Below the pieces are notes generated by a model. It was not told where the DNA came from and did not search any database. It worked only from the letters and a program-made list of their open reading frames with translations. Made by a program: the position numbers and the translations under genes. Shown here piece after piece: positions 1 to 14,837 of a stretch of 64,000 bases of DNA; within the stretch, counting starts at the first letter, position 1; the number at the start of each line of letters is the position of its first letter. The stretch is from Moniliella sp. 'wahieum' (lineage: Eukaryota), in assembly GCA_003971905.1 (NCBI GenBank), contig RSEE01000129.1, positions 1-64,000 of the forward strand. The letters run 5' to 3'.

Positions 1-505
1 GGGAGAGAGCCGAGGCGATAGCGAGCTACCCGAAGGGGGAGAGTTATGCCGAGGCGATAGCGAGCTACCCGAAGGGGACAGAGTTATGCCGAGGCGATAG
101 CGAGCTACCCGAAGGGGACAGAGTTATGCCGAGGCGATAGCGAGCTACCCGAAGGGGACAGAGTTATGCCGAGGCGATAGCGAGCTACCCGAAGGGGACA
201 GAGTTATGCCGAGGCGATAGCGAGCTACCCGAAGGGGACAGAGTTATGCCGAGGCGATAGCGAGCTACCCGAAGGGGACAGAGTTATGCCGAGGCGATAG
301 CGAGCTACCCGAAGGGGACAGAGTTATGCCGAGGCGATAGCGAGCTACCCGAAGGGGACAGAGTTATGCCGAGGCGATAGCGAGCTACCGAAGGGGACAG
401 AGTTATGCCGAGGCGATAGCGAGCTACCCGAAGGGGACAGAGTTATGCCGAGGCGATAGCGAGCTACCGAAGGGGACAGAGTTATGCCGAGGCGATAGCT
501 CGCTA
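1..505. repeat. 40-bp tandem array (~12.5 units), running off the window start
   Basis: Unit GAGTTATGCCGAGGCGATAGCGAGCTACCCGAAGGGGACA repeats head-to-tail with no spacers. Two units lack one C and the last is partial. Confidence 0.97.
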
Positions 506-570
506 CGAAATCGTCCGCTCTATGCAGCATATGCCCTCCGTTTTTCGATTGGACCACCGTTCAAAAGTTA

Positions 571-610
571 CACCCCCCCATCCCTAACCCTACCCACCCC
601 GACCCACCCA
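571..610 (+). repeat. Degenerate telomere-like C-rich tract
   Basis: CACCCCCCCATCCCTAACCCTACCCACCCCGACCCACCCA contains CCCTAACCCTA at 582-592 and abuts the 28S fragment. Confidence 0.45.
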
Positions 611-722
611 ACTGGCTTGTGGCAGCCAAGCGTTCATAGCGACGTTGCTTTTTGATCCTTCGATGTCGGCTCTATCATGCCGTAGCAAAATTCGGCAAGC
701 GTTGGATTGTTCACCCACCAAT

Positions 723-767
<45 letters not shown>

Positions 768-1140
768 ATCCTACCGTAACAAGCGAGTCGACAGTAGTTC
801 CGGCGAGTACGAGAGGAACACCGGGGCCGGGCCTCCAGTTGAGCACCTGTCCGACCGGGCAGAGGTGCGCAGCCGGCCCGCCGAGTAACACCTGAACGCC
901 TCTAAGGTGGAACTCGTGCTGGTACGCTCGCATGTGCGCTGGATGGGTACCAATAGGCGCAAGCCGTACACCACGGGGGGGTCTCTGTGGCGGGGCGACG
1001 CCCCACCACACGCCCCACAATATACACTTGAAGCACACTGCAAATCCCCCGCATACGACGGGGCATGGTCCGAGCGCCGTACGCCGTAGAGTGGGCTTGT
1101 TCCCACGATCGGCTGAAGCCCATCTCGGCACCTCTGATTC
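610..1140 (+). rRNA. 28S/25S LSU rRNA, 3' fragment only (part of domain V to the 3' end)
   Basis: Universal eukaryotic LSU motifs AACTGGCTTGTGGCAGCCAAGCGTTCATAGCGACG and GTGAGCTGGGTTTAGACCGTCGTGAGACAGGTTAG, sarcin-ricin loop AGTACGAGAGGAAC at 806-819, CTGAACGCCTCTAAG, and 3'-terminal GTAGAG..CTTGTT..ACGATC..CTGA..TGATT. Confidence 0.95.
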
Positions 1141-2523: not shown

Positions 2524-3333
2524 TTGCCTCGTTGCTCATCGCTGACTGTCCTGTGTGAAGATATGATGTGCCTTGTGGGATGCACGTGTCCCTATCTCTA
2601 CGTTGCGAAACCGCAGCCTAGGGAACGGGCTAGGCAATTATGGCGGGGCAAGAAGGTTTGTACGACGACGATGCACCCTCGACAAAGCGAGTGGCGCTCC
2701 CGCTTCGGGCATGTGGCAGCGGTCTGCCAACAAGTGGCGACCGGGGGCAAGAAGTGCGGCCTGTGCCGCATCCCCCGGCACCAACGCGACCAATGCCAAG
2801 ACCTGATTGATGTGTCGATCAAGGCCATTGCTCGCAAGAAAGGGCCTGAGCAAGTTGAATGCAGCGCAGAAGACATCGTGGCGAACGGGTCGGAGCGAAT
2901 CGAAGTGGCAGCGGCAGCTGCAGCGTTGGATGCGCCCCGGACAAGCGCGCGTGGTTTATCTGGAAAGAATCGTGGTCGTGTTTACTCCTCCTCCGAGTCG
3001 GAGGGGGAGGCTTTTGGCGGCGGTCAAGACGCCAGCGAGGCCCGCGACTGGGGCGATCGTGGTGTCAATTGGGCCGGTACGCCGGTCGACGCGGAGGGCA
3101 GCGCTCAACGGCTGTCTTTGTGCGCAGGGCTGCCGTTGCGGAGGCGGCCTTTACCCCTTGCCGGGTGGATCCGGCGATGGGTTGATGGGTTGGAGTCGGG
3201 CAAGGAAGGTGGGGACGGAGTGGGAAGCGAGGGGGGTGGATCGGAGGGCGAGGAGGCCGACAGCGAGGGCGAGGCGGCCAGCTCGGGGCGGGGGCCTGCT
3301 CTAGGCGGCCTCTGGTCCATCCCCCCCGTCTAG
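2524..3333 (+). CDS. Hypothetical Cys-rich protein with acidic C-terminus (exon structure uncertain)
   Basis: 269-aa ORF with CxxC-like segments (KKCGLCRIPRHQRDQC) and an E/S/G-rich tail. No family recognised. Confidence 0.3.
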   Translation: MPRCSSLTVLCEDMMCLVGCTCPYLYVAKPQPRERARQLWRGKKVCTTTMHPRQSEWRSRFGHVAAVCQQVATGGKKCGLCRIPRHQRDQCQDLIDVSIKAIARKKGPEQVECSAEDIVANGSERIEVAAAAAALDAPRTSARGLSGKNRGRVYSSSESEGEAFGGGQDASEARDWGDRGVNWAGTPVDAEGSAQRLSLCAGLPLRRRPLPLAGWIRRWVDGLESGKEGGDGVGSEGGGSEGEEADSEGEAASSGRGPALGGLWSIPPV

Positions 3334-10950: not shown

Positions 10951-13199
10951 GGCTGTGACCCCATTGCGTCTCCCTTTGTTCTCCCCTCCCGAAGTCGCGC
11001 CCCCCACGCCTCCGCTGCCCGCACAGACCGGCCAGGTCCTGACCCAGTATGACTGGGTGTTCCTTAATATGGAACCCGCATTGATCCCCGCCCAAAACTG
11101 ATCGAAAATGGGTCGAACTCTCGGCCTGGTCCCAGCAGCAGCCCCAAGCTCTTCCCCAACTCACTCCCGGTGCTGGCCGCAATGACCTCCACGACGCACA
11201 AGCCGTTCCGCACAGCGAACGCATTCCTCATCACAACCTTACTGCCGCCGACCATCAACGTCATTCATACTAAAGACGAAAACAATTATCCGCACGACCC
11301 TACTCAATACCAGGGCCATGATTCTCTCTACTGTTGTACATGTACGACGACGACCCCCACTCACACTTCTCTGGTATGATGTACTGACCGACGCGCTTGT
11401 GCAGGCCGGAACGTACAGGTATGCAGACGGAGATGGATCATCAAGAGTGTCCGAGCACTAGTGCAACCACATGGATCAAACCAGTGCCCGCTTTTCATTT
11501 ATATGTGGGAGATGTTAATGGTTCCTATTGAAGCGCCAAGTCGTATGCCTCCAAGCTCCGTCTCGTCTTGGCTCCAATATCCTGCATATTCGAGTACCCT
11601 CTCCCCTCTAATCCCAAATGGGAACCAAGTCCAAGGGATAGTGCGGCAAATTGTGCGTCGGCTAGACATTCGTTACAGAAGGCGATCGAGGCGAAGGGCC
11701 CGAGTGAACAAGAAAAGGTTCCAATGCGTAACGTGGCTCGACTTAAAAACACAATGTGCAAGGTGTGCAAACGCAACGTGCCAAGAGCCTGGACTTCTGC
11801 ATTGGGGATTGTATCACCTGACTGATGCTCTTGCGAGTCAACAATGGGTCAAACCACTCGCTACCCCTGCCTGAAATCCCCCAGTTGCCCCACTGGTTGT
11901 TCATTTTGCGGTTCGTGCTTGCAGCAACCCCTCCGCCATCTGTTTCGCTCGAGACGAGAGAAACGTATCTGGCACAGGCCAAACTCCCCTGGGTAGGTGA
12001 GCAGCAACGGCACCAGGCAAGTCATCCGGGGCGACAATCGGGGCAATGTGGTCGGTCAATGGTAGGACCAAGTTGGCATCCCGATGTCCGTCGCTTTGGG
12101 CAGATCAGTCTTGCTCTCCTCTTGGCTTTGCTCCACAGGCCAACGCATCGACTTGGGCAGCGAGGCGAACGTATGGGTGCACCAGGTGGGTGATCGGCAG
12201 CCAACGAGAGGCATTCGAGCCCGCCCCTCGTCATGGCACAAGGAAACGACGACGGTTTTGCTCGCCTGCCAGGATACGAAGCTGCTGCCTCCTGTGACTA
12301 CATCGCTCGGCTCCTGGCTGATCGAGAAAGCAGAAGCGCTCGATCCCAGCTGGAGGTCGGTGGTGCCCTCAAATCCAGCGTCCACATTTCCTGGCCACGG
12401 GGTCATGACTGGGTTGCGGGACATTCTGGCCACTATGGTAGAGCCCGAGCCATTCAACAACACTCAGCGAGTCGGGCGCTGCTACGCCACTATCACCCGC
12501 ACTGAGATCGCGATGGCAAACGCAGGTGCTCCAAAGAGCCCATCCATATCCAACGGCCTAACCCCTTCGACCTTCGAGACAAGACGCGCGGCGCCTATTT
12601 TACGTCGTATTTGCCATCCGCTCGCCGCCGTCCTGAGGCACACGCGCTGTGTAAGGAGATGAACACCTTGTTCGACATAGAGGCCAAAAAAAAGCACCAG
12701 CGTACAATCCTTGTGCAACGAGTGCGTAGCTCTGTTCCCTTGGTCTTCGCTGCGGGTGACTCCACCTGTGGTTACACATCCGCTGTGCAAGCTAAGGTAT
12801 AAGGATCACTGCATCCAAACGCGCCACCCCTGTAAGACATGGATCAAGGTGCTTTGCTTGATTTCCCTGCCGACCACGTTGCAAAACCACAGCCTAGGAG
12901 TCGGACTATGGTACTTTGGCTGTACAAGAATGCAAGACTAGAAGATGTGTATTCGCAGAACGTTCTGGACTGCGTGCGCTACTTTGGCTACGAATGTGTC
13001 CAAGGCGCTCTTGAATGGAGATGGGGCGGGCAATGGCAACTTATTCCTTCTCCGCATTTCCACCGCCACCTTATCCTCCGCCTTGCCCGCCGTCTGGAGG
13101 TCGTGGCGAATCATGTGCCCCCTTCCGTGATACGCGTGAACTATGCCGGTGGGAACTAGCGTAACACCAACAGCTCAGGCGCGCACGGGCTACGCCATG

Positions 13200-14837
13200 C
13201 AGTCGGTGCTCAGCCCAGTCTGGCAGCCGAAGCGGACCACCCGGCAGTTCCGCAGTCCCGATTCGGATCCATTGTGGAGTGCGCTGTGCTCTCGCCGCCG
13301 GGCAGCACAATGGTGCGGCGTCAGTTCAAGGAGGCGGCCGGTCGATTGGGAAGAGCGTATTTGGATCATCCCGATGATTACGCCGTGTTCAACCTGTTTG
13401 CCCTGTCGAAGGCGGATTTGCGGGGGGGGCTCTTCGGCCGACGTTGTGCCACCCTGAAGGCGTATCCGGAGGTGGCTTGACCGCCAACTATGGAGACGGG
13501 CTCTGCAGAGCGCCAGCGTTCCGATGATTTGACCCATGCACACCGCTAGGTCAAAGAGGGAATGCTGGGGCGTGCGGCGCGTACGCTGCGTCCCCAGGAT
13601 GCGGCGGTGGGGTTTGGGCCGGAAACGGTTGAGGCCCTGGGTGCGAAGCATCCTGCAGGCCCGAAGAACCCGCTGGCTGGTTTGGTGGTTCGGCAAATGT
13701 CGGAGCGGGACCCGCCTGGTTAAACAGGCGACACCGCAGCGGCGAACGCCGGTGAGCCACCCCCCCAATGGTTTTGGAGTTGGATGATAAGGACATCTAT
13801 CGCGCGGCAAGCAGCTTCTCCCGGGACGTGGGCGGAGGCGTGGGCGGATGGTCGGTTTCTTCTATAGTTGGCTTTAAAGCGCGATGACTTTAGAGCGGCT
13901 CTCAAGCCAAGGCGGTGCCATGTTTCATGGGACGTGCCCGGGTGCTCAGCTGTTGTGCACCAGTAGGTTGACGGCACTTGCGAAGCCTGACGGTGGAGTG
14001 AGACCGATCGCCTGTGGTGAACTTTACCGCGTAATGGCCAAGGCACTTCTTCTTTATTGGGATGTGGTTACTCCTCTGCTCCACACGCAGTTGGGCGTCA
14101 AGTCCAAGGGCGGGGTGGAGCCGATTGTGCGGCTTATGGATCGTTGGTTAGTGGGGAAGAGAAGGACCCGGCTTGGGCCAAGTTCAACTATGTGCTGTCG
14201 TTGGACTTTAAGAATGCGTTCAACTCGATCGACCGGGCAGCGGTGGCCCAGGCGGTGAGTGACTATTCGCCCGAGCTCCTTCCTTTCTTTCGTTGGGCTG
14301 ATGGGAAGCACACCCAGTTGGTGTTGGGTGGTGCAGGCGGCTTTGGAACCCTCCTGAGCCAGCAGGGAGTGAGGCAGGGCGACCCCTTTGGGCCCTTCTC
14401 TTCCGGCATCCGGGCTGCTCGAGCAGGCGCAGCGCACGTTGGGCGACGATGGGTTGGTGGTGTCCTATTTGGATGACACTTATGTATTGTCGCGCAATGT
14501 CAATGCGTTGCAGCTGGTCTCGCGTGTCGTGGCGCAGAGCAAGACGGGGCTGCAACTCAACCTGAGCAACACGAAGACTATCTCGACGCAGAAGTTGCGT
14601 CTGGAGGGCGGCACCTTCCTCGGCTCGTGCGTGGGTCCCAGAGAAGCTCGGCTCGCTTTTCTGCAGGCAAAGGTGGAGCCTCAGGCGGCGCTTTACCCCT
14701 CCTTGCACGGGATGTCGCTGCAGGACCCCTTGCTCTTGTTGCGCGTGGCTCTGCAACAGAACCTGCGGCACCTGCTCCGCTCGATGCAGACGGACGACCT
14801 GGCGGACCAGCTCCACCAGATCGCTGGTGCGAGGTGA
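13200..14837 (+). mobile_element. CRE-clade (MoTeR/Cnl1-like) non-LTR retrotransposon, RT region, truncated
   Basis: Frameshifted motifs GMLGRAARTL..ETVEALGAKHP, SRLTALAKPDGGVRPIACGELYR, QLGVKSKGGVEPIV, LSLDFKNAFNSIDR, QGVRQGDPFGP and VVSYLDDTY. Homology stops near 14837, before any C-terminal restriction-like endonuclease. Confidence 0.9.

Follow-up and report, generated by a model that had tools for sequence, protein, structure and literature searches.

A chromosome-end cassette joined to 28S rDNA at the insertion site of a retrotransposon in Moniliella sp. 'wahieum'

Cnl1 of Cryptococcus neoformans, MoTeR1 of Magnaporthe oryzae and FoTeR of Fusarium oxysporum are CRE-group retrotransposons with a restriction-like endonuclease (RLE), and their targets are telomere repeats. 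Target duplications of CNL1 are given as 0-13 bp in one passage of the literature (PMC12810828), and MoTeR-type elements have been associated with breakage and capture at chromosome ends in parts of another study (PMC7367193). The same parts describe breaks in subterminal rDNA of M. oryzae that were healed from telomere seeds of 1-4 nt in 19 of 24 events, and document the capture of ends by BIR. RLE non-LTR elements also occupy fixed sites in the rRNA genes of animals (R2, R8 and R9), and the R2 clade is marked by N-terminal C2H2 zinc fingers with a Myb domain and by a 5' HDV-like ribozyme. R9 makes a 126-bp duplication according to an excerpt of PMC6895275, and R8 and R9 changed target within rDNA according to one of PMC5035012. 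Many CRE elements, mostly from arthropods, were catalogued by Fell et al. (PMC13580325). Searches of literature mostly outside subscription journals, and outside Repbase and the catalogue that Fell et al. published in 2025, either of which may contain an earlier record, brought up no description of a fungal element of the Cnl1/MoTeR group that is specific to rDNA.

Here we describe a locus of Moniliella sp. 'wahieum' at which a 28S rRNA gene fragment is joined to chromosome-end DNA, and an RLE element that inserts at the same 28S site. The junction lies at a non-random site, and it has an ordinary cap and probably an unusual cutter.

The junction and the chromosome-end cassette

The window, which is the whole 64-kb stretch of DNA analysed, starts where contig C129 of the assembly (69.5 Mb in 223 contigs) starts. 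Its features are listed below.

9..506, forward strand: 40-bp tandem array, 12.5 copies with 98% matches; distal part of the standard end cassette
501..609, forward strand: truncated single copy of the ~140-bp subtelomeric cassette unit
571..609, forward strand: degenerate C-rich telomere-like CCCTAA tract; it is a constant portion of the 140-bp unit, and the cassette usually meets inner DNA here
610..612, forward strand: AAC common to the cassette and the 28S (junction microhomology), at the end of which the cassette alignment stops
610..1131, forward strand: 3' fragment of the 28S (LSU) gene, no longer functional, from the rDNA type in which the element is inserted elsewhere
610..829, forward strand: 220-nt 28S segment (225 nt when GGGAT is counted), of which one copy lies on each side of the element on C33, C2 and C158
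1570..1688, forward strand: 5S rRNA gene belonging to this rDNA unit, whose homology runs to ~1995
2587..2655, forward strand: 70-nt fragment of 28S (second site) that immediately precedes the 5' portion of a related retrotransposon, whose N-terminal match is at 2698-2850
12240..14828, forward strand: decayed pieces of a related retrotransposon (RLE at 12240-12629, 28S fragment at 12864-12898, RT at 13253-14828)

A preliminary description of this DNA had noted that LSU homology starts abruptly at 610, that the expected upstream GGGAT is missing, and that a degenerate CCCTAA tract and the 40-bp array stand in its place. All of this was borne out. Homology opened at AACTGGCTTG, BLAST against an intact unit also started at 610, the Rfam eukaryotic LSU consensus GUUACCACAGGGAU was absent before AAC, and the tract and the array were both present. 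The boundary between 28S and cassette is ambiguous by 3 nt, the shared AAC carrying the cassette alignment to 612. We take the site to be position 2449/2450 of the E. coli LSU, an insertion site of group I introns, and the homologous ATAA of the yeast mitochondrial LSU to be the place cleaved by I-SceI. When the C129 fragment was compared with the 28S copy downstream of the C33 element, none of 28 informative columns differed. A 4-nt deletion in conserved 28S at about 670, present in C129 alone among 20 aligned copies, may be decay or an assembly error. The cassette-to-28S junction is real within the assembly; of 24 sequencing runs listed for the window, none shared half of its sequence words (best share 0.17).

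Positions 1-609 are the standard chromosome-end cassette of this genome, not a fresh telomerase product. Among 63 end stretches selected by match to cassette or telomere patterns, the 140-bp unit was found in 59, the 40-bp unit in 56 and a telomere-like start in 34. The order from assembled ends inward was (CCCTAA)n, a short fixed leader, 40-bp units, 140-bp units, the C-rich tract and variable inner DNA, so that distal cassette ends were constant and proximal ends variable. The innermost 140-bp unit stopped in or just beyond the C-rich tract in all 59 ends that hold the unit, and 57 of 59 junctions examined led to sequences other than this 28S site. The core of the tract was identical across ends, with at least 75 pattern matches in the assembly and none for a reversed control. 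Nor was the DNA before the junction unique for ~70 bp as had been described: 500-610 had at least 64 matches (40 of 108 candidates scored), mostly near contig ends. These end and copy counts are lower bounds from pattern and BLAST searches and from selected stretches, a second such search having scored 40 of 83 candidates.

It had also been proposed that the break was healed by telomerase-like addition and later extended by satellite DNA. This proposal was not supported as worded: at dozens of ends the 40-bp array, the 110-bp unit and the degenerate tract recur as fixed parts in one order, indicating that they were most likely copied as one block. C129 begins within the 40-bp array, so that the true chromosome end lies outside the assembly. 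Telomerase is present, as TERT-like loci with a Telomerase_RBD match above cut-off were found on C1 and C25, and (CCCTAA)4 matches at contig ends represent canonical telomeres. We set aside the ideas that the 140-bp unit derives from telomerase RNA by copying beyond the template and that the 40-bp array serves as a telomere without telomerase; against them stand the position of (CCCTAA)n, outside the cassette, and the presence of TERT-like loci.

Several further arrangements of the cassette were observed. Whole cassettes stood in tandem with short telomere repeats between them at L101 (C121), L095 (C96), L131 (C1 end), L133 (C5 end) and L093 (C87), resembling MoTeR-like arrays without an ORF; the 40-bp arrays ranged from 1 to ~90 copies. 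The cassette was joined to rDNA just 5' of the 5S gene, with one common junction type, in the first 2.2 kb of L132 (C3), L096 (C98) and L106 (C145). A repeated terminal unit lies distal to the cassette in L037 (C112:4800-8300, minus strand), in which a helicase motif-I-like peptide is readable by eye on the minus strand; C37, C39, C47, C135 and C136 share identical distal starts.

The 28S site and the element that inserts there

Copies of the 28S site were counted by pattern search; the numbers are those of assembled copies, not copy numbers, and C2 and C33 look duplicated. The site was altered in 12 of 20 assembled copies: eight carried the tail of an element, two carried a 9-nt footprint of this tail and two were joined to the cassette (C129 and C112). 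The eight intact sites continued as normal 28S in six cases and met an insertion after 220 nt in two. The footprint copies (L016 on C219 and L017 on C53) were normal 28S in which only the 9 nt before GGGAT were the element's version. Such a replacement, by which the recognition motif is removed, suggests an abortive insertion or pop-out. A search for other junctions at GGGAT^AACTGGC, proposed in the preliminary description, yielded the C112 join along with the eight tails and two footprints.

The C112 join reads CCCT/AAC (the slash marks the junction), that is, one telomere repeat and then a different cassette variant; the distal neighbour of this cassette is a repeat boundary also found on C135. 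C129 and C112 differed in 6 of 28 informative rDNA columns and in the bases adjacent to the junction, and these differences favour two events. The downstream haplotype of C112 was nearest to the C219 footprint copy. Near the 28S end, rDNA fell into two haplotype classes that differed in ~20 of 28 informative columns, C193 and C14 against the other contigs, with C69 intermediate. When 16 copies were compared, the site was altered in 9 of 10 copies of one rDNA type versus 0 of 5 of the other, C69 again being intermediate. Two rDNA classes and two TERT-like loci may hint at a hybrid or duplicated genome. Breaks of rDNA were not confined to this site, as indicated by the cassette joins 5' of the 5S gene (C3, C98 and C145) and by 28S fragments that begin at other points (C49 and C220). 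The assembly is rich in indels: two rDNA units differed by 6 mismatches versus 78 gap bases in 9.9 kb.

The insertion on C33 is a non-LTR element of 4.05 kb that encodes an RT, then CCHC and RLE. The RT domain matched RVT_1 with an E value of 1.2e-5, below the Pfam cut-off. The ORF at L033:7829-8764 contains the RLE motif C-X2-C-X8-H-X3-C-X9-RHE...E...RTD...D, and this motif fits the SLACS/CRE endonuclease pattern as given in part of PMC12857005. The C-terminal part matched P0002 (E 1e-25) and P0198 (E 1e-24), and a Pfam search of the N-terminal ORFs, which are frameshifted as assembled, gave no match. Relatives of ~1,000 aa were abundant, the nearest being fungal and metagenomic proteins with 40-47% identity. 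The nearest named ones were proteins of Tilletia, Filobasidium and C. neoformans (42-47% identity), those of C. neoformans being probably Cnl1; judged by these names, the host looks basidiomycete. R2 structures matched the RT only at profile level (E ~1e-29). A quick tree of 80 rows, with no outgroup and no named Cnl1 or MoTeR1, placed the element in a 47-row group with proteins of Cryptococcus, Tilletia and Filobasidium at a weak SH-aLRT of 77, and the decayed RT of the window on a long branch.

Both element copies examined were frameshifted as assembled. Two copies differed by 6 substitutions and 53 gap bases in 4.06 kb; the few substitutions indicate a young family, and with an assembly so rich in indels the frame breaks may be sequencing errors. 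The insertion point in the 28S was ACCACAGGGAT/AAC, and the 3' end of the element lay at GGGA(T) in all eight rDNA copies. The 5' junction was identical in four of four copies, 220 nt downstream of AAC, resulting in a duplication of 220-225 bp. On C158, three elements stood in tandem, separated by the 28S segment of 220-225 bp. A SNP was common to all four left duplicates, and the right copy on C33 and C2 lacked it. With one 5' junction and a shared SNP, the 28S insertions may descend from a single insertion, and the duplication may have arisen once, or have been RNA-borne, rather than being cut afresh each time. Structured RNA at the 3' end of the element was not supported (z 0.83). An internal 1.6-kb piece of the element, 95-96% identical, was found in opposite orientation in subtelomeric arrays (L045 4065-5651 and L046 5573-7172; C69 and C14).

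Copies outside rDNA were sought with the 3' end of the element. There were 31 matches, of which 11 were outside rDNA and 10 were examined, the C14:13.8k match and the left flank on C222 being left out. Five were close copies with the 3' end within 2 nt of GGGA; the left flank was readable in four, and these were 5'-truncated with the same 3' end. Two were copies of a related family (76-78%), and three other matches of ~70% identity were set aside as a different family. The six copies compared were as follows.

C63, close copy: left flank ACCACAGGGAT; duplication of ~50 bp starting at the motif (BLAST)
C127, close copy: left flank GCCACAGGG; duplication of ~5 bp read by eye, none by BLAST
C1, close copy: motif with one mismatch; 12-bp duplication starting at the motif (BLAST)
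C30:609k, close copy: left flank without the motif
C49, related family: TACCACAGGGA at 20 nt before the 5' end; no duplication found
C30:694k, related family: left flank without the motif

Exact CCACAGGG was present within 60 nt of the 5' junction in three of these six non-rDNA copies, with one mismatch in one more, and was absent in two. The chance of exact CCACAGGG is 0.0017 per 60-nt flank and, by our own arithmetic, ~1e-7 for three of six. Its presence in three of six left flanks argues for recognition of a target sequence by the element. Judged by the bases derived from the target at the C1 and C127 junctions, the first nick would fall within ACCACA^G^G^G^AT, 2-5 nt upstream of 610; the C129 and C112 joins lie 1-5 nt from this putative nick, not necessarily on it. 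Telomere repeats after the element were found at none of the eight rDNA copies and five close copies elsewhere.

A second, related family of retrotransposons was repeatedly preceded by a ~70-nt 28S fragment starting with TGTCCCTATC, and the same fragment followed decayed relatives. It was found in the window (2587-2655 and 12864-12898) and in L036, L042, L043, L045, L046, L047, L023 and L034, and it also contains ACCACAG. This arrangement suggests that a sister family targets a second 28S site with a duplication of ~70 bp. The second site is presumably the R1 site. Fragments of 28S ending 7-11 nt into the second site, followed by an apparent decayed 28S end and 5S, were observed in L119 (C220), L143 (C49), L034 (C33) and L105 (C142).

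Origin of the junction

We consider that the junction probably records the healing of a chromosome break at the place where a 28S-specific retrotransposon inserts. The endonuclease of this retrotransposon would have cut an empty site, and the end would have captured the cassette through a telomere-like seed of 3-4 nt. The element protein, a predicted endonuclease, would bind ACCACAGGG and nick the bottom strand within ACCACA^G^G^G^AT, a nick that would normally prime reverse transcription. If the insertion failed, the nick would become a break and the distal rDNA would be lost. The freed 3' end would face the chromosome end, lose 1-5 nt and then terminate in GTT or GTTA, a telomere seed. In C129, this 3' end would pair with AAC in the telomere-like tract of a cassette at another end and copy the cassette outwards; in C112, it would gain one telomerase repeat first and then the cassette. 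The same site would also yield full insertions with the 220-225-bp duplication and the 9-nt footprints that overwrite the recognition motif.

The seed observed at the join was AAC on C129 and TAAC on C112. Plain (CCCTAA)n directly at the break was not found on C129, where the tract is the fixed one of the cassette, and amounted to at most one repeat on C112, for which a brief telomerase step is possible from the form of its join. Recombination of the cassette with the CACCCCC tail of the element was rejected, as it would retain GGGAT, which is absent from both joins. Some observations weigh against a healed break at the retrotransposon target: gene conversion after one event could have split the C129 and C112 haplotypes, the motif is missing from two of six off-target flanks, the C49 copy showed no duplication, and the frames of both examined element copies are broken as assembled. 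The rDNA breaks at other points and the single 5' junction shared by the 28S insertions weigh in the same direction.

Of the two cutters named in the preliminary description, the RLE retroelement fits, in that an element with RT and RLE inserts at the same site in the same genome, and the other, the homing endonuclease of a group I intron at L2449, is the least probable explanation of all those weighed here. Group I introns end in G, and base 609 is C. None of the 20 site copies carries an intron, and an Rfam search of five rDNA loci at gathering score returned rRNAs only and no group I family. A search with PF05551 (His-Cys family) gave no match, but its controls were equally silent. In favour of such an intron is that L2449 is a known nuclear group I intron site, according to part of PMC3511172. 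The description had also considered 1-609 to be the end of an undescribed element targeting this rDNA site. An element targeting the site does exist, but its sequence differs from 1-609. Two joins at one site speak for 1-609 as an element end; 57 of 59 cassette junctions go to other sequences and there is no ORF or 28S flank on the far side, and we regard this reading as highly improbable. An assembly chimera of a repeat-rich end and rDNA would suit an indel-rich assembly in which C2 and C33 have identical starts and repeats flank the join, but the C129 and C112 joins, which lie at one site, differ in cassette variant and in flanks, and the 3-4 nt shared at the join are too short for an overlap error. 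We regard a chimera as very unlikely.

Ordinary terminal truncation of subtelomeric rDNA, healed at any exposed seed, would make the coincidence of sites a matter of chance or of one event copied to two ends. Truncation of this kind has a precedent, since fungal rDNA ends often truncate without MoTeR and are healed from 1-4-nt seeds (PMC7367193, in part), and the cassette joins many unrelated sequences, including rDNA 5' of the 5S gene. However, the intact rDNA unit of 10.1 kb holds 139 AAC seeds on this strand, so that by our own arithmetic the chance of a join at this one is ~1/139 (~0.7%) for one join and ~5e-5 for two independent joins. The two joins also differ in sequence and haplotype, and alterations of two further kinds occur at the same site; we consider ordinary truncation quite unlikely. 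Trans-mobilisation, in which the same nick was used and the RT of the element copied an inward-running cassette transcript, would make the cassette a non-autonomous passenger. The orientation of the cassette is that needed for target-primed reverse transcription, with the C-rich strand as template, as in the telomere-inserted relatives, and cassettes stand in tandem inside telomere tracts at several ends. On the other hand, neither upstream 28S nor a duplication is left distal of either join, the repeat boundary that adjoins the cassette distally on C112 recurs on C135, and constant distal with variable proximal cassette ends are the reverse of retro-copies with fixed 3' and truncated 5' ends. 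We consider trans-mobilisation unlikely, although it is the strongest of these rivals.

Relation to known systems

A wider reading has, in our judgement, about an even chance of being right: a lineage of the Cnl1/MoTeR group would have been retargeted to the peptidyl-transferase region of the 28S, R2/R9-like in a fungus. Its element would read ACCACAGGG, make duplications of a few bp to 220-225 bp and overwrite the motif with its tail, and it may be intact under assembly errors. Failed insertions would cut chromosome ends, which would then be recapped, and a sister family would use a second 28S site. If true, this would be a natural case of one retrotransposon group in which rDNA has replaced telomere repeats as the target, and on-target, off-target, abortive and broken outcomes would all be seen in one genome, making the target choice of an RLE and the position of its second-strand cut directly testable. 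The target matches the Rfam eukaryotic LSU consensus, so that a working copy would be a candidate enzyme for rDNA insertion at a non-R2 site. The scar itself is minor; its value would lie in being evidence for an endonuclease that acts on empty sites and reshapes chromosome ends.

The element shares with Cnl1, MoTeR1 and FoTeR a protein of RT, CCHC and RLE, a fixed 3' end, 5' truncation, variable target duplications and tandem arrays near chromosome ends. Unlike them, it targets a 28S site instead of telomere repeats, with a duplication of 220-225 bp in 28S and ~50 bp off target. Among metagenome relatives (the best 80 of at least 360 confirmed), (CCCTAA)3 was found on the ORF strand in 13 of 79 loci and on the other strand in none. 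In the same 79 loci, BLAST and motif searches found no rRNA flank, one 32-nt match on the opposite strand being judged chance, and Rfam gave no match in the 20 loci searched; short contigs often end at repeats, which makes this absence of rDNA weak evidence. The telomere repeats in these sequences fit an ancestor that targeted telomeres and a change to 28S in the present lineage.

R2, R8 and R9 of animals are likewise RLE non-LTR elements at a fixed rRNA-gene site, but the host here is a fungus and the RT resembles Cnl1-like proteins of fungi far more than it does R2. The element site lies ~540 nt downstream of the TAAGGTAGC motif, which we take to be the R2 site. With R9 it has in common a fixed 28S site and a long duplication, up to 220-225 bp here and longer than the 126 bp of R9, but its kinship is with Cnl1/MoTeR. 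Nuclear group I introns at L2449 occupy the same rRNA position, and no intron-like sequence was present in any of the 20 copies here.

The rDNA-telomere truncations of Magnaporthe resemble the junction on C129, as there too subterminal rDNA was cut and healed from a short telomere seed. Those truncations were mostly at MoTeR-free ends and were ascribed to replication stress in the part of PMC7367193 that treats them, whereas here two joins lie at the target of a retrotransposon. Furthermore, the cap in Magnaporthe is plain TTAGGG, whereas the cap in Moniliella sp. 'wahieum' is a composite cassette.
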